Both the position numbers and the translations under genes were made by a program. Source: Enterobacter phage vB_ExiM_F4M1E. Taken from it: a stretch of 64,000 nt of DNA. Positions 16,361-28,310 of this stretch are shown here, piece after piece. The first letter of the stretch is position 1, and each line of letters opens with the position of its first letter. The DNA lies in sequence record OL744216.1. One strand, 5' to 3'. The notes under the pieces are model-generated. The model worked only from the letters and a program-made list of their open reading frames with translations, searched no databases and was not told the origin of the DNA.

Positions 16361-16402
16361 ATATGTTACAATGCTGGAGTTATCCTCTATCAGAAAATTT
16401 GA

Positions 16403-16582: not shown

Positions 16583-16617
16583 AAAATCTATACAGAGGTT
16601 CAAATCGAAATGCAAAT

Positions 16618-16722
16618 CGTTATCATTCTCACCTCTACCGGGTCGGAGTGAGAATCGTTCTCATTTGCAAATGCAACTAATAATCATTCGCATTCAGCTT
16701 GTTGAATGATAATCATTTTCAT
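16618..16722. promoter_or_regulatory. cluster of Fur-box-like AATCATTCTCAT-type sites (best: GAATGATAATCATTTTCAT approx 16704-16722)
   Basis: 14/16 match to Fur core AATGATAATCATTATC; near-palindrome GAGAATCGTTCTCAT. Confidence 0.4.
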
Positions 16723-16998
16723 CTCCAGAATAGCGGGCAGGTCCGGTGATTGTCTCCGGGTCAATTCTCCCCGCTATGTGTATAATATAACCCAAGCCCG
16801 GCCCGGTTGCAAGCGTCTTTACAGTTCTTTACAAAACTATTTTAGGCGAACTACCGGCGATCCACCTTCCGACCTGGCCCCGGTGCCCGGTACGTTAGCC
16901 CCGCCTTTTCGCCGTGGGGTGGCGTCTCCTCTCCTGTATGTGTACATTATGCACCAGGCCCGGCGGGCCGTCAATACAAAAATCAAAATAAATTTTTC

Positions 16999-17028
16999 TT
17001 GACCTGCCAGGCAAGCCGGGCCACAATG
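16999..17028 (+). promoter_or_regulatory. promoter P1 (TTGACC-N17/18-CACAAT)
   Basis: first of the promoter array. Confidence 0.4.
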
Positions 17029-17057
17029 CAGGCACACCAACAAAAGGAGATCGACCC

Positions 17058-17390
17058 ATGCAACAGACGAAATATTTTATTGAAGGAACAGCCGCCGCCC
17101 ACGCCGGGCAGATCCGCGCCTGCCGCTACAATAAAGAAGAGAACCGCCGCGAATGGTTCGCCGGGTTCGATAGTGTGGATCGTGGTTTCGCCGTGTTTAA
17201 GATCCTCCCTGGCCCCGGCGCTGTTAAGCTGGCTGACCTGGACCCCGTTTATATTGGTGGCGTTAAACAATGCCAGGATCGCGCCGTTACCCTGCAACAG
17301 ACAGACCGCGCCGGGCGCTATGTCATTTATGATATGGCAACGGGCAAGCCGTACCAGGAAAGCACAAAATTAAATTACAAAAATATTTAA
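17058..17390 (+). CDS. hypothetical early-type protein (110 aa)
   Basis: ORF behind P1 with RBS AAAGGAGA. Confidence 0.5.
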   Translation: MQQTKYFIEGTAAAHAGQIRACRYNKEENRREWFAGFDSVDRGFAVFKILPGPGAVKLADLDPVYIGGVKQCQDRAVTLQQTDRAGRYVIYDMATGKPYQESTKLNYKNI

Positions 17391-17399
17391 AATAATGCT

Positions 17400-17428
17400 T
17401 GACGGGGCCGACGATAGGCCCCATAATT
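17400..17428 (+). promoter_or_regulatory. promoter P2 TTGACG-N17-CATAAT, spacer GGGCC..GGCCC dyad
   Basis: consensus hexamers and 17-nt spacer. Confidence 0.6.
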
Positions 17429-17479
17429 CACCACATAGCGACGCACACCGCGCCGCACTAACAAAGAGAGACCGTCATC

Positions 17480-17917
17480 ATGTTACATTCAATCAATAAA
17501 GAGCAAAAACTGTACGTCCTGAAGTGTGGCAACGGCTTTACCTGCTATGGGTTCGAAGTGCTGGACACAAACGCCCGCAAGGTTAAGCAGTGGTTAGAAT
17601 CTGAAGGTGCAACAGTTGAGGATCTGCCATATCGCAAGGGCACAAAGAAGCATTATAAAGCCTGTCAAGATATGATCGCCGCTGGTTGTGCTTATCATGC
17701 CAGAACGGGCAAACGCTGCCTTGCTGGACTCACCAAACAATTAAAGGGCCTGGAGGGTCGCCGGGTAGAAGTGATCACAATGTACGGCGAAAAGCGCCGC
17801 TTTATTGTGGGTCGCTCTACTGGCTGGATGCCTGCCCACCTGGAGATCGCCCGCGCTAACAGTAGCGGCGGCATGAGTGCAGAGCAGCAATATAAATCTG
17901 TAACCATCGTAAAATAA
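17480..17917 (+). CDS. hypothetical protein (145 aa)
   Basis: RBS AAGAGAGA; behind P2. Confidence 0.5.
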   Translation: MLHSINKEQKLYVLKCGNGFTCYGFEVLDTNARKVKQWLESEGATVEDLPYRKGTKKHYKACQDMIAAGCAYHARTGKRCLAGLTKQLKGLEGRRVEVITMYGEKRRFIVGRSTGWMPAHLEIARANSSGGMSAEQQYKSVTIVK

Positions 17918-17930
17918 TTTAAAAAGAGTA

Positions 17931-17959
17931 TTGACACCGGGGCCACCTGGCCCCATAAT
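17931..17959 (+). promoter_or_regulatory. promoter P3 TTGACA-N17-CATAAT (GGGGCC-ACCT-GGCCCC spacer)
   Basis: consensus. Confidence 0.6.
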
Positions 17960-18008
17960 ACAAACAAGCCCGGCAAATGGTGCCCGGCAAAATCAGAGAG
18001 TAAAGAAA

Positions 18009-18230
18009 ATGGCTAAAGTAACCTATAAAAAATCACGTGGCGTCTCCTCTGTTAACCTGGCGGCGGTTGTAACCCTGCCCGCATACCGTACCCGTGACGA
18101 GGCGCGCGCCGTTGCCAGTAAGATCCGCGCCGCTGGCGTGACTCCGACAACGCCAACCAAAACGGCGGACGGCTGGCGCGTTACCGCAAAGCATAACGGC
18201 GGCACACTTTCCCGCAACACTCACCGCTAA
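18009..18230 (+). CDS. hypothetical basic protein (73 aa)
   Basis: ATG 18009 with RBS AGAGAG; Ala/Arg-rich. Confidence 0.45.
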   Translation: MAKVTYKKSRGVSSVNLAAVVTLPAYRTRDEARAVASKIRAAGVTPTTPTKTADGWRVTAKHNGGTLSRNTHR

Positions 18231-18275
18231 CCAATTGCAGGCCCCGCCGGGGGCCTTTTGTGTGGAGTCAGTACC

Positions 18276-18620
18276 ATGACCAAACAGATCTACCATGTAC
18301 CGATCACGCCGCTTTTCCGTTGTCATATCTTTTATGACTGTAATGATCTTGCGGGGCAATGGATCGGCGATACCGATCAACAATATGATTTCCCGGAATG
18401 GGACGAACTAAACCGCCGTGTAAGCAACGCCGCACACAATGCCGATCCTGATAGCCTGGCGGACGTGGAACACTTCCCCGGCGGGGCCGCTTGCTTTCCT
18501 TATATTGAGATCACCGCGCCAACGTGGGCGCTATGTAAAGCGATGGGCGACGCCGTGATCCGTTGCATCCTGGACAATGGCGGGATCGTCGAACCAAAAG
18601 ACAACGGAATAAATATTTAA
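18276..18620 (+). CDS. hypothetical protein (114 aa)
   Basis: RBS GTGGAG; no own promoter, shares P3 transcript. Confidence 0.45.
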   Translation: MTKQIYHVPITPLFRCHIFYDCNDLAGQWIGDTDQQYDFPEWDELNRRVSNAAHNADPDSLADVEHFPGGAACFPYIEITAPTWALCKAMGDAVIRCILDNGGIVEPKDNGINI

Positions 18621-18639
18621 ATTATTTTCGTTTTAGGGG

Positions 18640-18668
18640 TTGACGCCGCCCGGGGTTACCCTCATAAT
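18640..18668 (+). promoter_or_regulatory. promoter P4 TTGACG-N17-CATAAT
   Basis: consensus. Confidence 0.55.
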
Positions 18669-18720
18669 GTACCACATAGGGCGACGGAATAACCCGCCGC
18701 CAAAACCAAAAGGTAACAGT

Positions 18721-18960
18721 ATGCAAACCGTAATGATTAGCCACCCGGATCACGCTTCAGACTTCTACGCCCCGATCTACGCCCCGCTTGATTGGCAACG
18801 CCAGGGCCTGCAAAAAACCGCCACGGGCTATGGCACAAAGATCCCAACGTCCTATATGTTGGACTATCAAGGCAAGCGCCGTCGGATCTACGTTGACCAG
18901 TACAGCAACAGCGGCCACACTTACATCATGATCAAAGGCGAAAAAATTACGGTCTGCTAA
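18721..18960 (+). CDS. hypothetical protein (79 aa)
   Basis: ATG 18721 with RBS AAAGGT. Confidence 0.45.
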   Translation: MQTVMISHPDHASDFYAPIYAPLDWQRQGLQKTATGYGTKIPTSYMLDYQGKRRRIYVDQYSNSGHTYIMIKGEKITVC

Positions 18961-18969
18961 AAATAATTG

Positions 18970-18998
18970 TTGACCGGGGGCCGGAAAGGCCCCATAAT
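18970..18998 (+). promoter_or_regulatory. promoter P5 TTGACC-N17-CATAAT (GGGGCC..GGCCCC)
   Basis: consensus. Confidence 0.6.
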
Positions 18999-19030
18999 AC
19001 CAGACATACCAAACAAACGAGGCTTTACAA

Positions 19031-19261
19031 ATGAATCTGACTACTATCGGCGCTAACCAAACTATGATCACCCTGGCAAATGGCGCACAGGTTTTCTTTT
19101 CCTACAATACCCCGGTTGCGGCATACCTGCCCGGAGAGGGCTACTTGGTGACCGCCACAAAGCACAGCGCCACCACCTCAAAGCATGTTAATGCTTGGGC
19201 TGGCAAAGGTTGCGAGACCCGCCCACAGGAATTTTTTGATAATCTTATCAAATCCGCTTGA
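19031..19261 (+). CDS. hypothetical protein (76 aa)
   Basis: RBS ACGAGG. Confidence 0.5.
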   Translation: MNLTTIGANQTMITLANGAQVFFSYNTPVAAYLPGEGYLVTATKHSATTSKHVNAWAGKGCETRPQEFFDNLIKSA

Positions 19262-19287
19262 CGCTGGTTTCTGCCGGGGTATATAAT
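19258..19287 (+). promoter_or_regulatory. promoter P6 TTGACG-N18-TATAAT
   Basis: consensus; overlaps stop of previous gene. Confidence 0.55.
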
Positions 19288-19339
19288 CCCCGGCATAGGC
19301 AAGCGAAAGCAAACAACCAAACCGAAAGGATACCAAACG

Positions 19340-19720
19340 ATGAATATTTTCAACACTGTAAACGCCGCCGACATCAAAGAAATTTCCGTAACTGGCAAAC
19401 GTTGGTTTCAGCGTAGCTATGGCAACACGTATCACAGCGTAAGCGTCGCCGCCGTGGTATCACGTGAGACAGCCGAAAACTTGGGGGCTAATCCATCCCC
19501 GGCGGGATCTGGCGACGTGTGGATCGACCTGGGTTATGTTGGGTTCGCTTATGGTTATGATCGCGGGTTCGAACAAACCGCCCTGGCTATCCTGATCGAG
19601 GCTGTAAGCGATGCGCCGCAGGACTGGAAACAAAATTCATACGCTTGCCAGGTGGCAACGGCTTTAAATGTGCCTTACTCCGAAAACGTTTATGATGTTA
19701 GCCGCAAAAAGGATTTATAA
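19340..19720 (+). CDS. hypothetical protein (126 aa)
   Basis: RBS GAAAGGA. Confidence 0.5.
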   Translation: MNIFNTVNAADIKEISVTGKRWFQRSYGNTYHSVSVAAVVSRETAENLGANPSPAGSGDVWIDLGYVGFAYGYDRGFEQTALAILIEAVSDAPQDWKQNSYACQVATALNVPYSENVYDVSRKKDL

Positions 19721-19726
19721 TTTAGG

Positions 19727-19756
19727 TTGACACGGGGCCGGGTTAGGCCCCATAAT
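19727..19756 (+). promoter_or_regulatory. promoter P7 TTGACA-N18-CATAAT (GGGGCC..GGCCCC)
   Basis: consensus. Confidence 0.6.
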
Positions 19757-19788
19757 ACCCACAGACCCAAACAAAAGAGTAAAACGCG

Positions 19789-19998
19789 ATGATTAACGAG
19801 CAGCAAGTAAACGACGTAAAACATGAGGCTTATCAGGTGGCGATCCGTAGTGGTTCCCGCGCCGCCTTCAATCTGGTTGTTGAGTTGTACCCTGAACAGG
19901 CGGAAAATATTTTAATGCAGGTTTCCGTATTACTGGAAGCAACAAAGCACACCAAATTAAGCGCCGGGATCGATAAGCTGGCAAAAAGTTTAAAATAG
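19789..19998 (+). CDS. hypothetical protein (69 aa)
   Basis: RBS AAGAGTAA. Confidence 0.45.
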   Translation: MINEQQVNDVKHEAYQVAIRSGSRAAFNLVVELYPEQAENILMQVSVLLEATKHTKLSAGIDKLAKSLK

Positions 19999-20001
19999 TT
20001 G

Positions 20002-20031
20002 TTGACTCTTACCCCGTCCCGCTGGCATAAT
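20002..20031 (+). promoter_or_regulatory. promoter P8 TTGACT-N18-CATAAT
   Basis: consensus. Confidence 0.5.
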
Positions 20032-20086
20032 AGCGGGACTGATTAAGAGAAACACCACACAAACCAAACTAAAGAGAGTAAACATT

Positions 20087-20476
20087 ATGAACGCTAATTA
20101 TGACTTTTCCCAAATGGTTGTCGCATCCTCTACCGATCTGCGTAACTTCCGCAAAGAAAATAACTTTTACAAGGCCGTTCACCTGGTCGGGCTGGTAGAC
20201 GGGGAGATCAAAGATCTGGCGGAGGTTTCATTCTACGGCACCGGGAAAACCAACACGGCTATTTTGTGGATTCACTCCCCGATCCTGTCTCTCTATGGTT
20301 CAAGCGCTGGCAAGGCTGGCGGCTACGGTTACAACCGTGAGGACGCCGCTTTTCAAAGCGCCTTGCGGGGAATGGGGATCAAAAGTACAGGTTACGAATT
20401 GCCACGTGATTTTTTCCCGGCGCTTGCAAAGCATTTAGGGGTTGATGTATACTCAATCATCGAATCACACGGTTAA
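20087..20476 (+). CDS. hypothetical protein (129 aa)
   Basis: RBS AAGAGAG. Confidence 0.5.
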   Translation: MNANYDFSQMVVASSTDLRNFRKENNFYKAVHLVGLVDGEIKDLAEVSFYGTGKTNTAILWIHSPILSLYGSSAGKAGGYGYNREDAAFQSALRGMGIKSTGYELPRDFFPALAKHLGVDVYSIIESHG

Positions 20477-20481
20477 TATGA

Positions 20482-20796
20482 ATGATAACTATTCTCACAA
20501 TGCTGGGACTTGCGGCGGCGGCGATTTACTGCGTCGCTACTTATAAAGCGTCTGTATGGCGAAAGGGTCAAAAAATGTACGGCTATTTTGAATATGAGTA
20601 CAAAGGGGAGAAGGGATCAAGCCGGGACTATGGCGCGATGTTAGAGATCGATATGGTTGGCGCGATGAACTACCGCCAGGAGTTGGGCGCGGTGATCACG
20701 TATGAAGTTTACAAGTCATCTGAGGATGAGATCGGGCAGATAATTGATCAACGTTACTATATGGAACAGCAACAAAACAAACGCCGGAGAAAATGA
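20482..20796 (+). CDS. membrane-anchored hypothetical protein (104 aa)
   Basis: N-terminal TM helix ITILTMLGLAAAAIYCVA. Confidence 0.45.
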   Translation: MITILTMLGLAAAAIYCVATYKASVWRKGQKMYGYFEYEYKGEKGSSRDYGAMLEIDMVGAMNYRQELGAVITYEVYKSSEDEIGQIIDQRYYMEQQQNKRRRK

Positions 20797-20933
20797 GAAT
20801 GATTCACACTAACGAGAACCGCCAAAAGGCACGACCCCGCGCCCGCCTGTCATATGCTGAAGCCGAGGACCGCCTACAGCGTGAAAAGAGCAACAAACAA
20901 CAGCGCCGCAAAACGCGCTATAACTGGGAGTAA
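20793..20933 (+). CDS. small basic protein starting MRMI (46 aa)
   Basis: ATGA overlap; ATGAGAATGATT start shared with ORFs 25938 and 27043. Confidence 0.3.
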   Translation: MRMIHTNENRQKARPRARLSYAEAEDRLQREKSNKQQRRKTRYNWE

Positions 20934-20975
20934 GCGCCCCGGCAGGGAAACACTAGGCCAAACCGTTTAAACCGC

Positions 20976-21006
20976 ACAGGGGGCCTTACAGGCCCCTTAT
21001 TTTTGA
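20976..21006 (+). terminator. intrinsic terminator (AGGGGGCC-TTACA-GGCCCCTTATTTTTG)
   Basis: GC stem plus T-run. Confidence 0.6.
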
Positions 21007-21009
21007 TCT

Positions 21010-21249
21010 ATGGGGTACACAATGCAAAACCTTTACAGCATGACAGAATTTATCCGCCTCCTGGCGGGCCGTCCGATGGGCTTTACCTGCCTTTACTTGG
21101 TAAACGACGGCAAAGGCTACCGGATAACCTCAAAGTCATTAGCCGCCATTGCAGCGCGGGAAGGGGTGAAGATCTCCACCTCTCAGGCGCTCATTGTTGA
21201 CCCGGCGACCGTGGCGACGATTGAGGCGATCCGAGTCACCGTAAAATAA
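21010..21249 (+). CDS. hypothetical protein (79 aa)
   Basis: ORF after terminator; weak RBS. Confidence 0.4.
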   Translation: MGYTMQNLYSMTEFIRLLAGRPMGFTCLYLVNDGKGYRITSKSLAAIAAREGVKISTSQALIVDPATVATIEAIRVTVK

Positions 21250-21272
21250 TTCAAATATTTTCATTCCGGGGC

Positions 21273-21301
21273 TTGACGCCCGGCCCCGGTTCCCCCATAA
21301 T
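21273..21301 (+). promoter_or_regulatory. promoter P9 TTGACG-N17-CATAAT
   Basis: consensus. Confidence 0.55.
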
Positions 21302-21352
21302 ACACCACATAGCGACGCACACCGCGACGCACCAAACAAAAGAGAGTCCGTA

Positions 21353-21772
21353 ATGTCTACTAAAAATCCTTTCCGCATCAAATCAGGTTTATCCGTTTAC
21401 GCACTGGCTTGCGGCTACGTTCAGCAAATCGACACCGAAGTAACCGGGGAAAGTATCCGGGTACAATTGAGAATGGAACACGGCGCGTTTCACGTGCAGG
21501 CGTACAACTTCACCGAACACGGGCGGATCGAATGGGTAGTAGAGGACATGATCGGCGACGCTCGCACACAATGGCAACGCCTTGTAAATCAGATTTTTGG
21601 CGACACCATAAAGGCGACCAAAAAGGATCGCCGCTATACGGTAAATCGTGAGTATCGCGGGGAGAGTGACCCGGCGTATGTGACCCGCTTTTGTGGGGAG
21701 TATGTAGACTACAGCGACACCGCCGCCGCTGGCTGGATTAAGGCCGCAGAACACAAGGCCGGAAAACTTTAA
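21353..21772 (+). CDS. hypothetical protein (139 aa)
   Basis: RBS AAGAGAG. Confidence 0.5.
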   Translation: MSTKNPFRIKSGLSVYALACGYVQQIDTEVTGESIRVQLRMEHGAFHVQAYNFTEHGRIEWVVEDMIGDARTQWQRLVNQIFGDTIKATKKDRRYTVNREYRGESDPAYVTRFCGEYVDYSDTAAAGWIKAAEHKAGKL

Positions 21773-21780
21773 AATAGTTG

Positions 21781-21810
21781 TTGACGCCGGGCACCGTCCC
21801 GGCTTACAAT
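21781..21810 (+). promoter_or_regulatory. promoter P10 TTGACG-N18-TACAAT (CCGGGCACCGTCCCGG dyad)
   Basis: consensus. Confidence 0.55.
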
Positions 21811-21841
21811 ACCCAAACACAAACAAAAGAGAGTCAACACC

Positions 21842-21994
21842 ATGAAACATTATTTAGTAAACATCCCTGGCGTGGCTGGCCCGCTGAAAGTTTACGGCTA
21901 CGACGAACAGGACGCAAGAAAGCGCCTACGTGATCGGGAAGGGTACGGATCACGCCTCCCACGTGGCACAAAACTTTATTTGCAAAACGCTTGA
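21842..21994 (+). CDS. small hypothetical protein (50 aa)
   Basis: RBS AAGAGAG; stop overlaps next promoter -35. Confidence 0.35.
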   Translation: MKHYLVNIPGVAGPLKVYGYDEQDARKRLRDREGYGSRLPRGTKLYLQNA

Positions 21995-22020
21995 CGTGTG
22001 GTTATGCCGTCGCCTACAAT
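21991..22020 (+). promoter_or_regulatory. promoter P11 TTGACG-N18-TACAAT
   Basis: consensus. Confidence 0.5.
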
Positions 22021-22066
22021 TACGGCATAGACAAACGAAAGCAGACAACCAAACGAGGGTTAAATT

Positions 22067-22360
22067 ATGTTTGAAGTATTCGCCGGAATGTGCTTTTATG
22101 CCGCCGCCGCTTTAAAGCAGTGTGATGATTTTGTTGTGGAGTCCTACGACGATCCGCTGACGTGTGAGATCGTGGCGACCGATTACCGCCAGGACACCCG
22201 CTGGATTAACCCGGCTTGTATTCCATCGCCAGAAGTCGAACCGATGCCAGAAGGCGAAGAGATTCAAGATCCTGCCGTGGCTGTTACCTCGTTTTTTGTG
22301 GATAATCTGGACGCCGCCGCGCTGGTCCAAATGTACGCAAGCCAGGAGGCCGCACAATGA
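22067..22360 (+). CDS. acidic hypothetical protein (97 aa)
   Basis: RBS ACGAGGG. Confidence 0.5.
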   Translation: MFEVFAGMCFYAAAALKQCDDFVVESYDDPLTCEIVATDYRQDTRWINPACIPSPEVEPMPEGEEIQDPAVAVTSFFVDNLDAAALVQMYASQEAAQ

Positions 22361-22500
22361 ACCACAGCCGCAACATTGCAAAGCGCCGCCGCCCTAATTC
22401 CAGCGCCGCCAATGATGAGCGCCGGATCGCTGGTTTCATCGCTTGCGGCTACACCGTACAGCAGGCCCGGCAAATGGTAAAAGCAAAAGGCAGAAAATAA
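22357..22500 (+). CDS. small basic protein (47 aa)
   Basis: ATGA overlap; Arg-rich. Confidence 0.3.
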   Translation: MNHSRNIAKRRRPNSSAANDERRIAGFIACGYTVQQARQMVKAKGRK

Positions 22501-22503
22501 TTG

Positions 22504-22533
22504 TTGACACCGGGCACCGTCCCGGCTTATAAT
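22504..22533 (+). promoter_or_regulatory. promoter P12 TTGACA-N18-TATAAT
   Basis: near-identical to P10 and P13. Confidence 0.6.
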
Positions 22534-22571
22534 TCAGCTACACCAAACAAAACAGGCAAACGAGGCCACAA

Positions 22572-22751
22572 ATGAAATCATCCTTACTTTTCGCCCTGGT
22601 AGACATAGTGATCGGCAATGGTTGCGGTCAACATACCTTCATTGCAAACCGTCCCTATCCGCTCAAATCGTTGCAGGCCGACGCCCGCCTAACCGCCGGG
22701 CAGATCCGCCGCTACTTTCGTGAACCACACCCGGCAAAAACTGCAAAATAA
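22572..22751 (+). CDS. small hypothetical protein (59 aa)
   Basis: RBS ACGAGG. Confidence 0.35.
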   Translation: MKSSLLFALVDIVIGNGCGQHTFIANRPYPLKSLQADARLTAGQIRRYFREPHPAKTAK

Positions 22752-22754
22752 TTG

Positions 22755-22784
22755 TTGACGCCGGGCACCGCCCCGGCTTATAAT
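22755..22784 (+). promoter_or_regulatory. promoter P13 TTGACG-N18-TATAAT
   Basis: consensus. Confidence 0.6.
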
Positions 22785-22814
22785 TACCGAACACAAACAA
22801 ACGAGGCTACAAAA

Positions 22815-23114
22815 ATGCAACAGGCAAACACTCTTTTCATTCTGGCAAACGTAGCGGATCACGTTGTGGCGTCACTGTCCAACGTGGCGGGCACCGTGCA
22901 GATCATTTGCCGCCATATGGATGACACCGCGCCGAACCGCCTACAAATCAACGTAGACCGTAAAGGGGCCGACTTTGTGATCTCTTATGATGCCATTTAC
23001 AACGGGCGGCGCTTTATGCAGGCCAAAAGCGACCCGATCCCGGCTAACTACATTCAGGAGGCGATCGCCGTCCTGGTAAACGACACTATCCCGGCGGGGG
23101 CTATGTTACCATGA
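22815..23114 (+). CDS. hypothetical protein (99 aa)
   Basis: ATG 22815 with RBS ACGAGG. Confidence 0.5.
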   Translation: MQQANTLFILANVADHVVASLSNVAGTVQIICRHMDDTAPNRLQINVDRKGADFVISYDAIYNGRRFMQAKSDPIPANYIQEAIAVLVNDTIPAGAMLP

Positions 23115-23266
23115 ATCCGCATAAACTTTTAATCACCGCCTACCCAAACAAGGCGGATCGCCGTGAAACTTTGGACCGCTTAACCCTGTATTATCAGGAG
23201 GCCGGGCACAGTAAAGCGACGGCCCGCGCCTTGGCTAAAAAACGTTTACGTTTTGGTAAAAATTAG
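23111..23266 (+). CDS. small hypothetical protein (51 aa)
   Basis: ATGA overlap. Confidence 0.3.
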   Translation: MNPHKLLITAYPNKADRRETLDRLTLYYQEAGHSKATARALAKKRLRFGKN

Positions 23267-23267
23267 C

Positions 23268-23296
23268 TTGACGCCCGGCCCGAAAGGGCCGATAAT
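23268..23296 (+). promoter_or_regulatory. promoter P14 TTGACG-N17-GATAAT (GGCCC-GAAA-GGGCC)
   Basis: consensus. Confidence 0.55.
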
Positions 23297-23342
23297 CTCT
23301 CACATAGGGCGGGGAATGGTTCCCCGCATTATCTAAGAGGTT

Positions 23343-23501
23343 ATGAATATGTTTACTTTGATGACTTGGGAACACGAATCAAGCGCCCCTGTCCGCCGGA
23401 CCTTTGAAAACTTATGCGCCGCTTATCGCCTGGCGCAAGGCGGTTACTATAAAGCCCAAATCATCGACGAAAATAATATTGTAATGTACGAATTTAAATG
23501 A
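23343..23501 (+). CDS. small hypothetical protein (52 aa)
   Basis: RBS AAGAGG. Confidence 0.35.
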   Translation: MNMFTLMTWEHESSAPVRRTFENLCAAYRLAQGGYYKAQIIDENNIVMYEFK

Positions 23502-23530
23502 TTGACATCCGGCCCGAAAGGGCCGATAAT
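23502..23530 (+). promoter_or_regulatory. promoter P15 TTGACA-N17-GATAAT
   Basis: consensus. Confidence 0.55.
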
Positions 23531-23566
23531 GACCCCACACCAAACAAAAGAGAGAGAGACCGTAAA

Positions 23567-23773
23567 ATGATTACTATGATTCTTCAAAAGTCCCGCCTGA
23601 TTGATGTTACCGTTACCCTGTCCGCTTGCGGTGACACGTCCCGCCGGGCCGATCATTACCAGGTGACCGCTGTTAGTGATCGCGGCGCTGTCCTGCTGTC
23701 TGAAGTAACAGAGCATTTGCACGAGGCTTTTAAAACCTATTCAAAGTGGAAAGGCGACGAAGAAATAAAATAA
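23567..23773 (+). CDS. hypothetical protein (68 aa)
   Basis: RBS AAGAGAGAGAG. Confidence 0.45.
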   Translation: MITMILQKSRLIDVTVTLSACGDTSRRADHYQVTAVSDRGAVLLSEVTEHLHEAFKTYSKWKGDEEIK

Positions 23774-23781
23774 AAATCCGC

Positions 23782-23811
23782 TTGACGCCGGGGCCACGTT
23801 GGCCCCATAAT
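23782..23811 (+). promoter_or_regulatory. promoter P16 TTGACG-N18-CATAAT
   Basis: consensus. Confidence 0.6.
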
Positions 23812-23845
23812 GCCACCACACCAAACGAATAAAGAGAATCACAAA

Positions 23846-24100
23846 ATGTTAAAATTCATCAAATCACTTTTCACCCGCACCACCCCGGCTTGCAAGTTGC
23901 CACCCCTGGAGGCTAAAGGCGTGATCGCTCGCAAAGTCTCAGAATTGTTTATCATTTCATTGGTTCACAACGGCGGAGACTGTTACGAAATCATCGAAAT
24001 GGGCCGCTACACTAAAACAGGGTCAAGCCGTGTCCGTTACGGTGAACACCGCGCCCGGAATCATTTTGATTCTGTATGCTGTATGGTGGGTGCAAAATAA
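23846..24100 (+). CDS. hypothetical protein (84 aa)
   Basis: RBS AAAGAGAA. Confidence 0.45.
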   Translation: MLKFIKSLFTRTTPACKLPPLEAKGVIARKVSELFIISLVHNGGDCYEIIEMGRYTKTGSSRVRYGEHRARNHFDSVCCMVGAK

Positions 24101-24103
24101 ACC

Positions 24104-24132
24104 TTGACGGGGCCAACGTTAGGCCCCATAAT
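24104..24132 (+). promoter_or_regulatory. promoter P17 TTGACG-N17-CATAAT
   Basis: consensus. Confidence 0.6.
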
Positions 24133-24184
24133 GTAACACATAGGGCGACACAACGCCGCCCACAAACAGAAAAGAGATCGTAAA

Positions 24185-24544
24185 ATGAGCAAATACACCC
24201 CGTGGGAACCAATGTACAAAATCACCCTGTCCGAGTGCAGCAAAAACGAACTGGATGGAATTGTCCGCGCCGCTACTGCCGTGATCCGTGGGCTTAACTT
24301 CAAACGTTTAACCTTCAAAGAAGTAAAACAAATTTTTGAAATGCCGGATCACAAGGCCGCTTCCCGCTTGGGGCTTACTGTAACATCGCAAGGGCTTTAC
24401 AAAGATCACGACCTTAAAGGGCCGCACGTGTGGCTTTTAGCTTGCGCCGTGGGCCGCACCATTGCCGACACTATCAAAGAGATGAAAGCGCTACGCGATG
24501 ACGCAAAAGCCCGCCGGGCCGCGCTGGAAGTGGCACAAAAATAA
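24185..24544 (+). CDS. hypothetical protein (119 aa)
   Basis: RBS AAAGAGA. Confidence 0.5.
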   Translation: MSKYTPWEPMYKITLSECSKNELDGIVRAATAVIRGLNFKRLTFKEVKQIFEMPDHKAASRLGLTVTSQGLYKDHDLKGPHVWLLACAVGRTIADTIKEMKALRDDAKARRAALEVAQK

Positions 24545-24557
24545 TTTAAAAATAAAG

Positions 24558-24587
24558 TTGACGCCGGGAAGCGTTACGGGCTATACT
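24558..24587 (+). promoter_or_regulatory. promoter P18 TTGACG-N18-TATACT
   Basis: consensus. Confidence 0.5.
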
Positions 24588-24635
24588 CTTTTCATCGGGT
24601 CACAACAGACCAAAACAAACAAAGAGAGAAACAAA

Positions 24636-24713
24636 ATGAGCGTAATCTTCCTGGTATCTGTTTTCGTAGCTATCGCATCTTCTACCGCAATTTGTATCAA
24701 ACTGGGATACTAA
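24636..24713 (+). CDS. small hydrophobic peptide (25 aa)
   Basis: RBS AAGAGAGA; single TM helix; leader-like. Confidence 0.3.
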   Translation: MSVIFLVSVFVAIASSTAICIKLGY

Positions 24714-24717
24714 TAAA

Positions 24718-25110
24718 ATGACTACTTTCAACGTTTTAAACTTAAACGCTTTTATCGCGGGTTACATTGAGGCAATGTTTTTTGCAGAGTCCGCCACCGA
24801 TAGCGACGGCGAAGAAATCGAAAGTTTAGCCGGGTATGAGTTAAGCGCTGAAGCCCTGGACGCTGCCCGCATGGATTGCGCCCGCTTTATGGATGTTGCG
24901 CCGCTGTTACTCAAAGGGGCAATGTTGGCAGGGGTTGACTACGACCACACCCAGGCAGGCCGGGATCTATGGTTTAGCCGTCAAGGTCACGGCGTAGGAT
25001 TCTGGGATCGCGGACTTGGGACGATCGGTGATAAACTTCACGACGTGGCGCAGACTTTCGGATCAAAAAATCTGTTTATCAATGATGCTGGATTTATTGA
25101 GGTAGAATAA
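24718..25110 (+). CDS. hypothetical protein (130 aa)
   Basis: ORF in array. Confidence 0.5.
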   Translation: MTTFNVLNLNAFIAGYIEAMFFAESATDSDGEEIESLAGYELSAEALDAARMDCARFMDVAPLLLKGAMLAGVDYDHTQAGRDLWFSRQGHGVGFWDRGLGTIGDKLHDVAQTFGSKNLFINDAGFIEVE

Positions 25111-25571
25111 TGAACCTTACAGATCTGAAGTATTACGATGAATTAACCCCAGCGGCGCAAGCTGAAGCCCGGCGCAACGTTGCCGCCAGTGTGCAGACTC
25201 ACCACGGGCGGGAAATCGGAAAGGCGTTTTTTAAATTCCAGCGGGACCCAAACAAGGCGATCAATGACCCGCTACACATCCGCCGGATCGTCAACGGCGG
25301 CGAAGCGTGGCGCAAGATCCGCCAGGAGGGCGACGCCTATCTAATCCGCTTTATCCGGTCCAATAAAGTGATCTTTACTGATTGCGGTGCGTATGTGGCG
25401 TATGTGGACGCCTTCACAATGTTTATTGATGGGTTGGAATACATACCCACAGCCGAACAGCAAAAGACGCTTAGAACGCCTTACATCGACGTTAACGGGC
25501 GCGGCCCGGCGTTTCATAATTGGCTATACCGTATGCACCACAAAATAAAGTTTTTCATGATCCGGGGTTGA
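25110..25571 (+). CDS. hypothetical protein (153 aa)
   Basis: TAATG overlap with upstream. Confidence 0.5.
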   Translation: MNLTDLKYYDELTPAAQAEARRNVAASVQTHHGREIGKAFFKFQRDPNKAINDPLHIRRIVNGGEAWRKIRQEGDAYLIRFIRSNKVIFTDCGAYVAYVDAFTMFIDGLEYIPTAEQQKTLRTPYIDVNGRGPAFHNWLYRMHHKIKFFMIRG

Positions 25572-25596
25572 CACCCGGCGGAATAGGGCCGATAAT
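25568..25596 (+). promoter_or_regulatory. promoter P19 TTGACA-N17-GATAAT
   Basis: consensus. Confidence 0.5.
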
Positions 25597-25649
25597 GTCT
25601 CTCATAGGGCGGGGAATGGTCCCCGGCCCAATGACCTGGAGTCAGTACA

Positions 25650-25901
25650 ATGGAAATCAAACACGTAATTTCTGCAAACGTCGCCGTTTTAGGTTCTGTA
25701 AGTGAAACCCGTGTGAGTCTCGCTAAATGGTGCGCCGCTCAAACTTTCGGGAGTTACGGCGAAAAGGTAACAGAGGTTAAGCGCTTGCTTTCCTTTGGTA
25801 ACGTGGGCCGCAAGTTGTTAACAGAGGATATCGCCCGCCGGGTTGAGATCCATTATTCACTTGCTCAAATCATCGTAAAAGAGATCGAAAGCGTAATTTA
25901 A
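25650..25901 (+). CDS. hypothetical protein (83 aa)
   Basis: RBS GGAG. Confidence 0.45.
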   Translation: MEIKHVISANVAVLGSVSETRVSLAKWCAAQTFGSYGEKVTEVKRLLSFGNVGRKLLTEDIARRVEIHYSLAQIIVKEIESVI

Positions 25902-25937
25902 CCCGGCCCGGCCCCGCAAGGGGCCAACAGAGGACAA

Positions 25938-26162
25938 ATGAGAATGATTATCAAAAACACTTTGGGCAAAACTGATTTTCTGCGCTCGCTGGAGATCGGC
26001 AAGCCGCAAGCCTGGTATTGTAAAAAGCTGGCGCATGATGAAATGAAAGATTTTACAGCCACGTTAACCCGCGTTAAAATCAGCATTACCCAAAAGAAAG
26101 CGCTTTTAGTGATTGAGGGGCAGATCCCGCAAACCGTGATCATTGTTGAGAGGACCGCATAA
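25938..26162 (+). CDS. hypothetical protein starting MRMI (74 aa)
   Basis: Fur-like ATGAGAATGATTATC spans start codon. Confidence 0.45.
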   Translation: MRMIIKNTLGKTDFLRSLEIGKPQAWYCKKLAHDEMKDFTATLTRVKISITQKKALLVIEGQIPQTVIIVERTA

Positions 26163-26163
26163 A

Positions 26164-26388
26164 ATGGGGGCCAATACTCGCAACCGCTACGGCATAACGC
26201 GCCGTTTCGGGGTCTGCTATATGCTGGCAGATGATCCACAATATCGGGCCTTGCTGGAGGCTTACCAGGTCACCAAACTGGACGCCCAAAAGGGCCGGGC
26301 CGAACACGACGCCCACACCGCCAACATTAAAGCGCTTCACGACTTTTTAGCCGTCGCGGAAAAGCGTCACGACATCCGCCACAATTGA
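26164..26388 (+). CDS. hypothetical protein (74 aa)
   Basis: ATG 26164 2 nt after upstream stop. Confidence 0.45.
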   Translation: MGANTRNRYGITRRFGVCYMLADDPQYRALLEAYQVTKLDAQKGRAEHDAHTANIKALHDFLAVAEKRHDIRHN

Positions 26389-26398
26389 GGGCCGAACC

Positions 26399-26593
26399 AT
26401 GATCACAGCTTCAGAGATCCGCCAAACGTTAGCCGCCTTGCGTTACCTCCACGCCTTACGCCGGGAAAGTGATCCGACTTATGCCGGGTCATGCCTGGCT
26501 AACGATGCCGAAAACGGGATCGCCACACTGAAAGAATTAAATGATCGCATGAGCGACAGCGACCGATCCGACTTTATCGGGGGCGAAATATGA
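26399..26593 (+). CDS. hypothetical protein (64 aa)
   Basis: ORF in array. Confidence 0.4.
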   Translation: MITASEIRQTLAALRYLHALRRESDPTYAGSCLANDAENGIATLKELNDRMSDSDRSDFIGGEI

Positions 26594-26898
26594 TCGCCAT
26601 TACGCCAACCGTTTTAGATTGGTATCGCCAGCAGATCGCGCCGCCGCTGGCTATCTTCAAACAGGCCGAAAGCAAACAGCGCCGGATCTCCATTCATGAG
26701 ATCATTACGCTTAACGCTGGGCAGAAAATGAATGTTTCCCGGTCCCATATGGGCAACACGTTAGCGCTTTTAAGTTTACGCCGCAAGCGTCAACGGTTAA
26801 CCCTGGAATCACTCCGCATGATGGGACAGCCGCACCAGGTCACCGGGGACAGGATCGCCAGGGCATGGAACCGGGCAAACAGTCGAAAGGCTGGATGA
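26590..26898 (+). CDS. hypothetical protein (102 aa)
   Basis: ATGA overlap. Confidence 0.45.
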   Translation: MIAITPTVLDWYRQQIAPPLAIFKQAESKQRRISIHEIITLNAGQKMNVSRSHMGNTLALLSLRRKRQRLTLESLRMMGQPHQVTGDRIARAWNRANSRKAG

Positions 26899-27307
26899 AT
26901 TAACAGTGTTCACAGGGGTTGACTTGTTCGCCCCTTTTTTGTTATCCTTTTGTCATGCGATGGCACCTGATGCAGGGGGAGACAAACACCGGACCTGCCC
27001 GCTATTCAGGGAGGCGGACCGGACCTGGGCCGCGCCGGGCAAATGAGAATGGTTATCATTCCCAACAAAATCAAATACATACTTTAAAACCGTTGTCAAA
27101 TTTATTTCTTACCCCTGTATAAATGTACATGCCCGCCAAACGCTCTAAAACGCGTTTTAAGCCGTTTTGCCCTTCCCCGGTATCCTACACCATAAAAATA
27201 TAGATCGCCCGAAATCGGACTTTCGCACTTTTTGTCCTTGCAAACGTGAAATTTTTATGTTAGGCCTGAAGGGCTGAAAGCCGGGTGTACGTTGACAAAA
27301 CTTTACA

Positions 27308-27336
27308 AAACTCCCTATTGACGCCCGGCCCGTTAT
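27308..27336 (+). promoter_or_regulatory. promoter P20 TTGACG-N17-GATAAT
   Basis: consensus; preceded by CTTTACAAAACT motif also found at 16.82 kb. Confidence 0.55.
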
Positions 27337-27398
27337 CCCTGATAATGTATCTCGTAGGGCGGCAATGATGCGACGGCCCACAAAGAGGGGACAGTAAA

Positions 27399-27638
27399 AT
27401 GAAAGAAATCATGACCTTGGTAAAATCCCGTATGTTACGTGGCGGATTCAACGCATACGCCGACGGCAATATCATTGCCACGGTCGCAAAAGTTACAAAA
27501 AATGATAATGATTCTCAGTTCGCCGGGCAGTATCGGATCTGTTTTACCCGTGGAAAGTTGCAAGGTAAAACGGCATACGCACCAGATTTTCAAGAGCTTA
27601 ATGATCGTATTTGCGCCGTTTTAGATTTTGCAAAATAA
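27399..27638 (+). CDS. hypothetical protein (79 aa)
   Basis: RBS AAGAGGGGA. Confidence 0.5.
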   Translation: MKEIMTLVKSRMLRGGFNAYADGNIIATVAKVTKNDNDSQFAGQYRICFTRGKLQGKTAYAPDFQELNDRICAVLDFAK

Positions 27639-27641
27639 ATG

Positions 27642-27670
27642 TTGACGCTGGGGCCGAAAGGCCCCATAAT
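27642..27670 (+). promoter_or_regulatory. promoter P21 TTGACG-N17-CATAAT (GGGGCC-GAAA-GGCCCC)
   Basis: consensus. Confidence 0.6.
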
Positions 27671-27715
27671 ACCCACTCAAGCAACAAACCACTAAAAACA
27701 CTGGAGACCGTAAAA

Positions 27716-28030
27716 ATGACCAAATCTAAATTTTTCGAAATGCTGGATCGCTACCTGTCAAGCCATAACGAGTGGGCCAAACTGGGCAACGGGTACGACT
27801 CATACAAGGCCGAACAGTTAAAACCTTATGTTTTCCATGAGGACCCGGCGAACCTGGAGAAGTGGAAAGCGAAAGATCCGTCCTATCCTTGGACCGCTCA
27901 CGCTTCAGGCTTTACCCTGGCTGATTGTTGGCATGTTGAGGTAATGCAACATAAAACCGCTGAAGCCGCCGAAAAACAGCACGTAATTTTCACCCGCTGG
28001 ATCGCAGACTATCAAAAGGCCCGCGCTTAA
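27716..28030 (+). CDS. hypothetical protein (104 aa)
   Basis: ATG 27716 with RBS GGAGAC. Confidence 0.5.
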   Translation: MTKSKFFEMLDRYLSSHNEWAKLGNGYDSYKAEQLKPYVFHEDPANLEKWKAKDPSYPWTAHASGFTLADCWHVEVMQHKTAEAAEKQHVIFTRWIADYQKARA

Positions 28031-28275
28031 TGTCCCGGCTTTTTAAAATCAATCTTCCATTGTGGGCCGCTTTAGCGGTCCTCATTGCCTTTTCTGGCGA
28101 TACGGTCAACAATTGGATTTTGTCCGCTGTACTTGGACCCGATCAAATGGTCACAACATTTTTAAACGCTTTCGGCGCTACACTGGCAACGGCCCGCCTT
28201 GCCTATCGTGGCAAATCAATAAACCGTTATGATCTGGCGCTATCACTGCCCGCCCTGGTTACCTGCCTAAACTGA
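28030..28275 (+). CDS. membrane protein (81 aa)
   Basis: two TM helices; TAATG overlap. Confidence 0.45.
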   Translation: MSRLFKINLPLWAALAVLIAFSGDTVNNWILSAVLGPDQMVTTFLNAFGATLATARLAYRGKSINRYDLALSLPALVTCLN

Positions 28276-28278
28276 AGA

Positions 28279-28310
28279 GGCCCGCCACCCCGGCGGGCTT
28301 TTCTTTTGTC
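28279..28310 (+). terminator. intrinsic terminator (GCCCGCC-ACC-CCGGCGGGCTTTTCTTTTG)
   Basis: GC stem plus T-run; ends the rightward block. Confidence 0.7.

Follow-up and report, generated by a model that had tools for sequence, protein, structure and literature searches.

A promoter-dense island of small genes in a Certrevirus-type myovirus and its likeness to PeSL cassettes

The window analysed here, 64,000 nucleotides of Enterobacter phage vB_ExiM_F4M1E (OL744216.1), contains between positions 16999 and 28310 an island of about 35 small open reading frames and 22 promoter modules, all on the plus strand, of which 82% is coding. What kind of region needs so many promoters for such small genes, and how are its units built? 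It is likely to be the early "hyperplastic" region of a virulent phage, a myovirus of the Certrevirus type, and to be composed of cassettes of the PeSL (promoter-early stem-loop) type.

Promoter modules and the genes behind them

A scan for TTGACA-N16-18-TATAAT with at least 10 of 12 matches detects 21 sigma70 sites on the plus strand of the island, against a mean of 0.8 +/- 0.9 over 200 dinucleotide shuffles, none of which exceeded 4; its minus strand has no match. This is the number given in the initial annotation, which had placed 21 promoters in 11 kb, and it accounts for 21 of the 24 plus-strand matches in the window. Twenty of them, together with two weaker matches at 16999 and 26919 (9/12) whose context is right, precede a ribosome-binding site and an ATG. 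The match at 26052 lies inside an ORF, lacks the common flanks and was rejected as a cassette promoter. The consensus of these flanks reads AaAAtaa..TTGACg ... cATAAT; in the leader, A accounts for 42% of the bases, C for 28% and T for 10%. The distance from -35 to ATG is 59-85 nt, somewhat above the 50-80 nt first estimated. The claim that stop codons frequently overlap the next -35 box holds for the stops of g6 (19261), g14 (21994) and g26 (25571), which lie inside the -35 of P6, P11 and P19, respectively; most other upstream stops finish 1-24 nt 5' of it.

The ORFs encode 25-153 amino acids. The picture of some 20 cassettes with a promoter for nearly every ORF fits 22 of them, whereas the other 13 of 35 have none of their own and are co-transcribed in groups of two to five. 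P1 (16999-17027, TTGACC-N17-CACAAT, 9/12) drives g1 (17058-17390, 110 aa), P2 (17399-17427, TTGACG-N17-CATAAT) g2 (17480-17917, 145 aa) and P3 (17931-17959, TTGACA-N17-CATAAT) g3 (18009-18230, 73 aa). Directly 3' of terminators and with no visible promoter are g4 (18276-18620) and g12 (21010/21022-21249). P4 (18640-18668, TTGACG-N17-CATAAT) is followed by g5 (18721-18960), P5 (18970-18998, TTGACC-N17-CATAAT) by g6 (19031-19261), P6 (19258-19287, TTGACG-N18-TATAAT) by g7 (19340-19720) and P7 (19727-19756, TTGACA-N18-CATAAT) by g8 (19789-19998). The first group, g9 (20087-20476), g10 (20482-20796) and g11 (20793-20933), depends on P8 (20002-20031, TTGACT-N18-CATAAT). P9 (21273-21301, TTGACG-N17-CATAAT) drives g13 (21353-21772), P10 (21781-21810, TTGACG-N18-TACAAT) g14 (21842-21994), and P11 (21991-22020, TTGACG-N18-TACAAT) both g15 (22067-22360) and g16 (22357-22500). 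P12 (22504-22533, TTGACA-N18-TATAAT), a 12/12 match, precedes g17 (22572-22751); P13 (22755-22784, TTGACG-N18-TATAAT) serves g18 (22815-23114) and g19 (23111-23266).

Single genes again stand behind P14 (23268-23296, TTGACG-N17-GATAAT; g20, 23343-23501), P15 (23502-23530, TTGACA-N17-GATAAT; g21, 23567-23773), P16 (23782-23811, TTGACG-N18-CATAAT; g22, 23846-24100) and P17 (24104-24132, TTGACG-N17-CATAAT; g23, 24185-24544). P18 (24558-24587, TTGACG-N18-TATACT) drives g24 (24636-24713), g25 (24718-25110) and g26 (25110-25571), and P19 (25568-25596, TTGACA-N17-GATAAT) the group g27 (25650-25901), g28 (25938-26162), g29 (26164-26388), g30 (26399-26593) and g31 (26590-26898). Beyond P20, which is treated below, P21 (27318-27346, TTGACG-N17-GATAAT) drives g33 (27399-27638) and P22 (27642-27670, TTGACG-N17-CATAAT) the pair g34 (27716-28030) and g35 (28030-28275).

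The ORFs have conserved counterparts in related phages, a point on which the initial annotation had made its reading depend. Twenty-nine of the 35 match PHROG families with E values of 1e-25 to 1e-79, all of unknown function; they include g1 (PHROG 12835), g2 (10759), g3 (13378), g34 (13296), g35 (20190) and, among g4-g11, every member except g11. The lack of recognisable domains noted earlier is borne out, since Pfam returned a single DUF (DUF7170 in g20, E 2.6e-19), neither NCBIfam nor PDB gave any sequence match, and no ORF of the island gave a functional lead. The g25 protein (PHROG 1915) has 139 homologue clusters, none of them named, and an AF2 model of pLDDT 92.8 for which no solved fold relative was found. 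Weak HTH-like matches were seen for g23 and for g31 (ParB-HTH, E 0.023), the model of the latter being all-helical and of low confidence (pLDDT 57). The products of g11 (46 aa) and g16 (47 aa) are basic. By our reading of the sequences, g10 has an N-terminal TM helix, g17 a probable lipoprotein signal, and g35 would be a membrane protein. The hydrophobic 25-aa peptide of g24, MSVIFLVSVFVAIASSTAICIKLGY, is kept in eight relatives with synonymous nucleotide changes, and the feature tables of CR3, CR9 and KaOmega list no CDS at its position; g24 encodes a conserved, unannotated membrane peptide.

Relatives and homology breakpoints

The window shares 80-92% nucleotide identity, in mosaic pieces, with the Certrevirus phages POP17/18, KaOmega, CR3/8/9, phiTE, CB7 and P7_Pc, the nearest relatives being POP17/18, Enterobacter phage SS-2025 and KaOmega. 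Judged by this identity, the source phage belongs to Certrevirus, a genus of the Vequintavirinae, and is a virulent myovirus, in agreement with the virulent nature proposed for it at the outset. The layout of the island is real, and for Certrevirus it has already been published, which the initial annotation had missed, as it had the hairpins and the likeness to PeSLs described below. Buttimer et al. (2020, Antibiotics 9:352; PMC7344957) described, in congeneric but distinct phages, the motif AAAA-N3-TGTTGAC-N19-TATAAT with an UP element, which the genomes of CB7, CR3, CR8 and CR9 contain 13-21 times each and which is concentrated in a putative early region with many short hypothetical ORFs. 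Genus, locus and motif are the same as here, the phage of the window being another one with a piecewise identity of 88-92%, and each of eight relatives that we compared has 16-25 such promoters. These authors hold that host RNA polymerase transcribes the motif promoters early and possibly at middle times; CB7 encodes no phage RNA polymerase (PMC7344957). Hairpins, PeSLs, cassette shuffling and mosaicism are not mentioned in that paper. For Certrevirus, the GC hairpins of the promoters, the placement of upstream stop codons within the AT-rich UP element or next to it, and the clustering of mosaic breakpoints in promoter modules appear to be unreported.

Of 39 distinct clusters of homology breakpoints among the eight relatives, 20 fall within promoter modules, whose share of the bases is 20% (binomial P = 1e-5). 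This enrichment overstates promoter specificity, since BLAST alignments are prone to run on wherever promoter sequence is repeated, and cassettes are expected to be exchanged at gene boundaries in any case. The remaining clusters lie mostly at gene boundaries.

The pre-early and early host-takeover regions of other virulent coliphages (T5 first-step-transfer genes, T4 early ORFans, T7 class I genes) likewise place many small genes of unknown function under strong promoters of the host type. Those genes are switched on as soon as the DNA enters the cell, and their products are often toxic or counter host defences. The likeness is one of analogy: neither sequences nor families are related, and nothing points to a two-step DNA transfer, as in T5, for the island phage. 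A literature search turned up neither a transcriptome nor 5'-end data from any member of the Vequintavirinae. The near-consensus sigma70 boxes and UP elements are most naturally read as targets of the unmodified host RNA polymerase, which would imply early expression. As to the early host-takeover or anti-defence region first proposed, the host-type promoters with UP elements are present, while the early timing and the role, the latter suggested by position and variability, stay inferential.

Stem-loops within the modules

Most modules carry a short GC-rich hairpin. In the spacer it takes the form GGGCC/GGCCC in P2 and P17 (loop N7), P3 (N4), P5 and P16 (N5), P7 (N6) and P22 (GAAA), GGCCC-GAAA-GGGCC in P14 and P15, and CCGGG-N6-CCCGG in P10 and P12, extended to GCCGGG-N6-CCCGGC in P13. 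Elsewhere it encloses the -10 box, as in P6 (8 bp, TGCCGGGG/CCCCGGCA), P8 (GTCCCGCT/AGCGGGAC) and P11 (TATGCCGT/ACGGCATA), or the -35 box, as in P9 (CCGGGGC/GCCCCGG) and P19 (CCGGG/CCCGG). P4 has a leader of the CATAGGGCG-hairpin type, P14 a second hairpin in its leader (GCGGGGAA/TTCCCCGC, read by eye) and P18 a weak hairpin only.

Pooling the window with the eight relatives gave 130 distinct promoters, 78 of which (60%) have a perfect spacer stem of at least 5 bp, in the three orientations GGGCC, CCGGG and GGCCC, compared with 4% of shuffles matched in composition. Folding z-scores average -2.0. Where the hairpin encloses the -10 box, it is 95% paired, versus 32-48% in slid controls, and both-sided (compensatory) changes occur at three pairs. 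The pairing is under selection. These hairpins are not canonical intrinsic terminators since just 0-3 U follow within the next 8 nt. By analogy with PeSLs, they may nevertheless attenuate read-through transcription.

PeSLs were described in T4-like phages (Arbiol et al. 2010, PMC2839356; Comeau et al. 2014, PMC4122927), and the anatomy of the island matches them closely. Both comprise an AT-rich region with the upstream stop codon, near-consensus sigma70 -35 and -10 boxes, a GC stem-loop that mostly sits in the spacer or overlaps the -10, and then SD and ATG; both are clustered in regions of small non-essential ORFans and sited at indel or replacement junctions between related phages. The lineages differ, the island belonging to a GC-richer (about 50%) Vequintavirinae genome, and its stems, mostly 5-bp GGGCC/GGCCC without U tracts, are unlike those of T4-type PeSLs. 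Promoter and terminator activity and mini-circle formation have been shown experimentally for some T4-type PeSLs (PMC2839356, PMC4122927), whereas the promoters of the island modules are predicted ones.

The preferred model is as follows. Each module comprises an AT-rich UP element, usually overlapping the 3' end and stop of the preceding ORF, followed by a near-consensus -35 (TTGACG), a GC-rich spacer of 17-18 nt with a 5-6-bp hairpin (or an 8-9-bp hairpin enclosing the -10 or -35), a -10 of the form C/G/T-ATAAT, a C/A-rich and presumably unstructured leader of about 30-50 nt and a GAGAG/GAGG ribosome-binding site before the ATG. At injection, about 22 promoters would be fired simultaneously by unmodified host sigma70 RNA polymerase, and some 35 small accessory proteins would be highly expressed irrespective of position; they would presumably take over the host, counter its defences or act on membranes. 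The hairpins would form in read-through RNA and attenuate or insulate transcription from upstream modules, or stabilise processed ends. The repeated modules, 60-130 nt long, could serve as homology patches through which related phages swap, gain or lose cassettes, leaving the expression of neighbouring genes undisturbed.

An improbable alternative is that the hairpin repeats are primarily recombination sites, of an integron-like or site-specific cassette platform, and resemble promoters only secondarily. The breakpoints clustering in modules and the short GC inverted repeats that change sequence yet keep pairing would fit such a role, and Arbiol et al. (PMC2839356) speculated that a protein might target a GGGG...CCCC stem. 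Yet what is conserved is what a promoter needs and a recombination site does not, namely the hexamers and the 17-18 nt between them, the UP element and a fixed distance to SD and ATG, whereas the stems are just 5-9 bp long and vary in placement relative to the hexamers. Furthermore, no recombinase was recognised among the island ORFs, the family libraries having given no functional match, and comparable -10 boxes flanked by hairpins are found at solitary promoters in other parts of the window.

Slightly less credible still is that the spacer dyads are DNA operators at which a dimeric phage repressor silences the early promoters when early gives way to middle expression. The HTH-like matches of g31 and g23 would offer candidates, though the g31 model is of low confidence. 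However, stems differ within one genome (GGGCC, GGCCC, CCGGG, TATGCCGTC, GTCCCGCT), loops are anywhere between 3 and 11 nt long and the stems sit at varying distances from the hexamers, so that one protein could not read all the dyads. In addition, the wobbles of the -10-enclosing hairpin are G-U in the plus-strand sense only, which points to RNA or single-stranded pairing.

That base composition or chance alone produced the motif density, or that the ORFs are not genes, might be argued from the false positives of consensus scans and from very short ORFs without known domains, but is already refuted by the excess over shuffles, the complete strand bias, common flanks reaching well past the hexamers, the PHROG matches and a 25-aa peptide that drifts synonymously only.

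Terminators and a conserved non-coding element

The three intrinsic terminators claimed for the island are confirmed as strong ones: T1 (18239-18256; 7-bp GC stem, -15.6 kcal/mol, T-rich tail), T2 (20978-20998; 9-bp stem, -15.8 kcal/mol, ATTTTTG tail) and T3 (28276-28302; 11-bp stem, -21.2 kcal/mol), which closes the island. An apparently corresponding position to T2 carries a terminator annotation in phage P7_Pc. To these a fourth, weak one is added at 26914-26935. It overlaps P20 (26914-26948, TTGACT-N18-TATCCT, 9/12), whose -35 lies in the loop of the weak terminator hairpin, followed by T6. P20 is kept across Vequintavirinae and Stephanstirmvirinae and runs into a conserved non-coding element (26936-27065) with the core GGAGACAAACACCGGACCTGCCCGCTATTC and then a second ACCGGACCTG repeat. 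The 55-aa ORF g32 (26955-27122) is probably no gene, because its reading frame is not conserved.

Conservation of the non-coding element spans subfamilies. It also holds a Fur-box-like palindrome at 27044, after the second repeat, and arrays of such palindromes flank the island.

Layout of the promoter array

The island (16999-28310, plus strand) is densely packed with sigma70-type promoters that have UP elements and all lie on one strand. A consensus scan detected 45 promoter-like sites in 15-30 kb, as compared with 17 +/- 3.8 in shuffled sequences. At a score of at least 10/12, 21 of the 24 plus-strand sites in the 64-kb window fall within 17.4-27.7 kb. The island itself holds 21 such sites on the plus strand, where 200 shuffles that preserve dinucleotides gave 0.8 +/- 0.9 (maximum 4); its minus strand holds no sigma70 site at this threshold. 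The core of the initial annotation, an island of promoters and small ORFs, is thus confirmed. Near-consensus -35 and -10 boxes at 17-18-nt spacing are found in modules scoring 10-12/12 (20 cases) or 9/12 (two cases, at 16999 and 26919, both on the plus strand and placed in module context). An ATG with a GAGAG/GAGG-type ribosome-binding site lies 59-85 nt downstream of 20 of the 21 strict sites and of both 9/12 sites; the promoter-like site at 26052 is intragenic and without the common flanks.

Thirty-five plus-strand ORFs of 25-153 aa were called, and the island is 82% coding. The previous figure of about 20 cassettes therefore undercounts the genes. The claim that nearly every ORF has its own promoter holds for 22 of them but is overstated, since the other 13 are co-transcribed without one. 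The three intrinsic terminators were found at 18239-18256, 20978-20998 and 28276-28302, with T-rich tails and energies of -15.6 to -21.2 kcal/mol; a weak fourth lies at 26914-26935. Overlap of a stop codon with the next -35 box, presented as frequent, occurs in three of the 21 modules analysed (at 19261, 21994 and 25571), whereas in 16 the stop ends 1-24 nt ahead of the -35. Two genes without their own promoter, g4 (18276) and g12 (21010/21022), start 12-20 nt past strong intrinsic terminators. Their expression would need either terminator read-through or a promoter type outside the sigma70 scan.

Leading leftwards from the island are two further promoters with this architecture, at 16974-16946 (minus strand, TTGACG-N17-CATAAT) and at 16812-16784 (minus strand, TTGCAA-N17-TATATT). 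Both face the repeat-rich non-coding region at 16.1-16.9 kb, and behind the first of them there is no ORF that begins with a start codon. A role in transcription into an origin-like region, or in production of a small RNA, is possible.

Module anatomy and promoter-embedded hairpins

Similarity among the aligned promoters extends well past the two hexamers. The 22 copies share the consensus AaAAtaa..TTGACg ... cATAAT, in which an UP-like element (AaAAtaa) precedes the -35 and positions -10 to -5 before the -35 are 81-95% A+T. The typical -35 is TTGACG and the typical -10 is C/G/T-ATAAT, with a spacer of 75% G+C between them. The leader is rich in A (42%) and C (28%), with only 10% T, and is followed by the SD and ATG; GAGAG, GAGG or GGAG is located 5-10 nt ahead of the ATG in 21 of 21 modules analysed (promoter module P20 was left out).

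The hairpins embedded in these modules are selected for pairing. Among 130 distinct promoters pooled from the window and eight relatives, 60% carry a stem of 5 bp or more, perfectly paired and entirely within the 17-18-nt spacer, versus 4% of composition-matched shuffles. The spacer stems are of the types GGGCC...GGCCC (50), CCGGG(A)... (19) and GGCCC...GGGCC (7), with loops of 3-7 nt. Many of the other promoters have stems of 7-9 bp around the -10, such as TATGCCGTC-ccTACAAT-GACGGCATA and TGCCGGGG-taTATAAT-CCCCGGCA, or of 5-7 bp around the -35. In an alignment of 18 copies from two related promoter families, pairing in the helix around the -10 reaches 95%, as compared with 32-48% when the partner is slid as a control. 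Three pairs of this helix show changes on both sides (GC to UA, CG to GC), and where only one side has changed the result is a G-U wobble in the plus-strand sense. The 21 window modules analysed have a mean folding z-score of -2.0.

The module hairpins are not canonical intrinsic terminators, because no U tract lies behind the stems, only 0-3 U being present in the following 8 nt. N4-type hairpin promoters, which are served by a virion RNA polymerase and have no sigma70 hexamers, were also ruled out: canonical -35 and -10 boxes are present, the island hairpins vary in position and sequence, and the relative CB7 has no RNA polymerase gene (PMC7344957). Inverted repeats flanking the -10, for example GGGGCC-tgTAATAT-GGCCCC, also occur at isolated sigma70-like promoters outside the island, at 2742 (minus), 7179 (plus), 40246 (minus) and 55888 (minus). 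It seems, then, that this hairpin-around-the--10 design is genome-wide in the phage.

Relatives, PeSL cassettes and mosaicism

Sequence comparison assigns the window to the genus Certrevirus, subfamily Vequintavirinae, and makes the phage an rV5-like myovirus. Collinear BLAST chains join the island region to CR3, CR9, CB7, phiTE, KaOmega, P7_Pc and POP17. In a megablast search 73 GenBank phage records match the island. The best matches include Pectobacterium phages POP17 and POP18 (88% identity, 81% covered), Klebsiella phage KaOmega (92% identity), Enterobacter phage SS-2025, Cronobacter phages CR3, CR8, CR9 and PBES02, and Pectobacterium phages phiTE, CB7 and P7_Pc; in every case the alignment is split into several pieces. 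One island ORF has a counterpart of 97% identity on a contig of 150 kb from an Enterobacter hormaechei assembly, so that the phage is probably a Certrevirus with Enterobacter as its host. The window has no tRNAs. A pseudo-ToxI link, checked since phiTE is a close relative, was set aside.

Promoters of this kind have been described in the genus. Buttimer et al. (2020) reported a putative promoter, AAAA-N3-TGTTGAC-N19-TATAAT, with -10, -35 and UP elements, present 13 times in CB7, 21 in CR3, 21 in CR8 and 13 in CR9, concentrated among short hypothetical ORFs, and inferred early expression by the host RNA polymerase (PMC7344957). The island is syntenic with the short-ORF block of these four phages and has the same consensus with UP element, in 22 copies. 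The core observation of the initial annotation was thus already published for the genus, and our finding is mainly confirmatory. Its interpretation is reasonable, not new for the genus, and unproven in its functional part. To this we add three points: hairpins that lie within the promoters and show compensatory changes, an anatomy of PeSL type in a phage that is not T4-like, and the clustering of breakpoints; Buttimer et al. make no mention of hairpins, PeSLs or shuffling (PMC7344957). A literature search for Vequintavirinae transcriptomes found none.

Promoter-early stem-loop (PeSL) cassettes were defined in T4-like phages (Arbiol et al. 2010, PMC2839356; Comeau et al. 2014, PMC4122927). They comprise an AT-rich region with an upstream stop, near-consensus sigma70 boxes, an SD with ATG, and a stable GC stem-loop that mostly lies between the -35 and -10 or overlaps the -10, and they cluster in hyperplastic ORFan regions and at indel junctions. 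Experiments in those studies gave evidence that PeSL promoters are strong, that one stem-loop acts as a terminator and that recombination between PeSLs produces mini-circles (PMC2839356, PMC4122927). The island modules likewise have near-consensus sigma70 boxes at 17-18-nt spacing, an AT-rich UP region with a stop codon in or beside it, a GC stem-loop in the spacer or enclosing the -10 or -35, and an SD and ATG at the 3' end. They too are associated with small variable ORFs and with breakpoints, alignments extending into the repeated promoters. Judged on those features that a sequence can display, the modules correspond to PeSLs in all but taxonomy: the phage is a Certrevirus, not T4-like. The island would thus work like a PeSL array, yet outside the group where PeSLs were defined. 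Strong intrinsic termination is not predicted for the island stems. In the portion of the literature that could be searched, no paper applying the PeSL concept to rV5-like phages was found. PeSL-like modules would extend this mode of modular gene exchange from T4-like to rV5-like phages, and are putative ready-made parts for strong, insulated promoters.

The island shows cassette-wise mosaicism with junctions in the modules. In comparisons with the eight relatives, each of which has 16-25 plus-strand promoters of the island type by the same scan, BLASTN chains stop at recurrent positions, and 96 chain ends collapse into 39 breakpoint clusters. Twenty of the 39 fall in promoter modules, taken as 30 nt before the -35 through the ATG and making up 20% of the island (binomial P = 1e-5), it being understood that alignments naturally extend into repeated promoter sequence and that cassette swaps are expected at gene boundaries anyway. 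The remaining clusters are mostly at promoter-less gene junctions and a few are intragenic.

We propose that the host RNA polymerase would fire every module as soon as the DNA is injected, and that accessory proteins would thereby be made at a high level. In transcripts that read through from upstream, the hairpins would fold and serve in attenuation, insulation or stabilisation. The repeated modules could act as homology patches for the gain, loss and exchange of cassettes. A reading of the modules as recombination sites first would share the breakpoint clustering and is less well supported. The same applies to their being repressor operators: selection keeps the pairing but not the sequence, so that a structure in the nucleic acid is favoured over an operator for a protein. 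That the array is a chance artefact is also less well supported, 21 sites being observed, all on the plus strand, versus 0.8 expected.

Gene content and the flanking elements

The description of the gene content as entirely uncharacterised holds. The single Pfam family in the island is DUF7170 (g20), with sub-threshold matches to SPOR, GYD, RWP-RK and ParB-HTH. PHROG families were matched by 29 of the 35 ORFs (E 1e-25 to 1e-79), all of them of 'unknown function', and in annotated relatives nearly all products of the region are labelled 'hypothetical protein'. An NCBIfam search of the island ORFs gave nothing meaningful, PDB sequence searches with the island proteins gave no match, and all-against-all BLASTP revealed no paralogues among the 35 proteins. 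A Pfam scan of 63 homologues of g25 (24718-25110, PHROG 1915) found no family. The AF2 model of g31 has a pLDDT of 57, too poor for a fold search to be worthwhile. Host-takeover and anti-defence functions are usually found among early accessory genes, and such a role is plausible for the island proteins. The island is a compact catalogue of about 35 conserved, uncharacterised, putative early phage proteins, including a widespread family with a confident predicted fold and no solved relative.

The catalogue also includes an apparently unannotated 25-aa membrane peptide. This hydrophobic peptide, MSVIFLVSVFVAIASSTAICIKLGY (24636-24713), has its own promoter and is kept in all eight relatives examined, with nucleotide differences that are mostly synonymous, indicating that its gene is a real micro-gene. 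The feature tables of CR3, CR9 and KaOmega have no CDS at this position. The island's most widely conserved coding piece is the g30/g31 junction (26562-26720), 160 nt shared at 84% identity by practically every rV5-like coliphage of the genus Vequintavirus. It also matches several records of 137-143 kb labelled as Campylobacter phages, which look like mislabelled rV5-like genomes.

Within 26898-27398, where there is no convincing gene, lies a non-coding element (26936-27065, plus strand). About 120 nt of it (26936-27054) are shared, at 76-98% identity, by phages of Certrevirus, Seunavirus and Vequintavirus and even by members of the Stephanstirmvirinae. Usually nothing is annotated there in relatives, and the reading frame is not conserved. 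Its 30-nt core, GGAGACAANCACCGGACCTGCCCGCTATTC, has a second copy on the opposite strand at 16728-16757 (minus), and both cores are downstream of a sigma70-like promoter (26919, plus, and 16812, minus). In Klebsiella phages the two ACCGGACCTG repeats of the element, 30 nt apart, both read ACCGAACCTG, a joint change suggesting that this DNA binds a protein. RNAalifold gave -8 kcal/mol and no covariation, which does not support a structured RNA. No Rfam family reaches its gathering score anywhere in the window, and a lenient Rfam search of 26880-27340 returned a chance match only.

The region also has a palindrome of 15 bp, TGAGAAT-N-ATTCTCA, that is very similar to the Fur box of E. coli. At a score of at least 11/14 it occurs 15 times in the window, versus 2.7 expected in shuffles, and all copies lie in 16.65-29.2 kb. 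Three form an array at 29-bp spacing directly left of the island (16649-16721), and five lie within 140 bp directly right of it (29082-29220), with further right-hand sites at 28607 and 28876. Others overlap the starts of genes g10, g11 and g28 (20483, 20794 and 25939, respectively), and single sites are found at 27044 and 27503. The flanking arrays are kept in all Certrevirus relatives examined whose sequences include the flanks. A literature search for Fur boxes in the genomes of lytic phages found nothing. The palindromes and the non-coding element are as much a part of the neighbouring 'iteron' region as of the island.

Taken together, these features admit a broader proposal, which we consider rather unlikely as a whole: that PeSL-type cassettes with pairing-selected hairpins are a general, convergent platform of large virulent phages, here arranged as a regulated array. 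Such phages may express and exchange accessory genes via these cassettes, whose hairpins would be functional RNA or ssDNA elements that insulate transcription and mark recombination joints. The array may be one regulated unit, bracketed by the palindrome arrays and the two opposite-strand copies of the element, one of them within the island and close to its right-hand border. These brackets could couple early-gene expression or an adjacent origin to a DNA-binding protein of host or phage, for example Fur, in which case expression or origin would be tied to iron status.

Directly left of the left-hand palindrome array, at 16400-16590, three units of about 60 nt, GGTCTCGATCG...TTTTC...CGTATTCTC, can be read by eye; these are the 'iterons' of the initial annotation.
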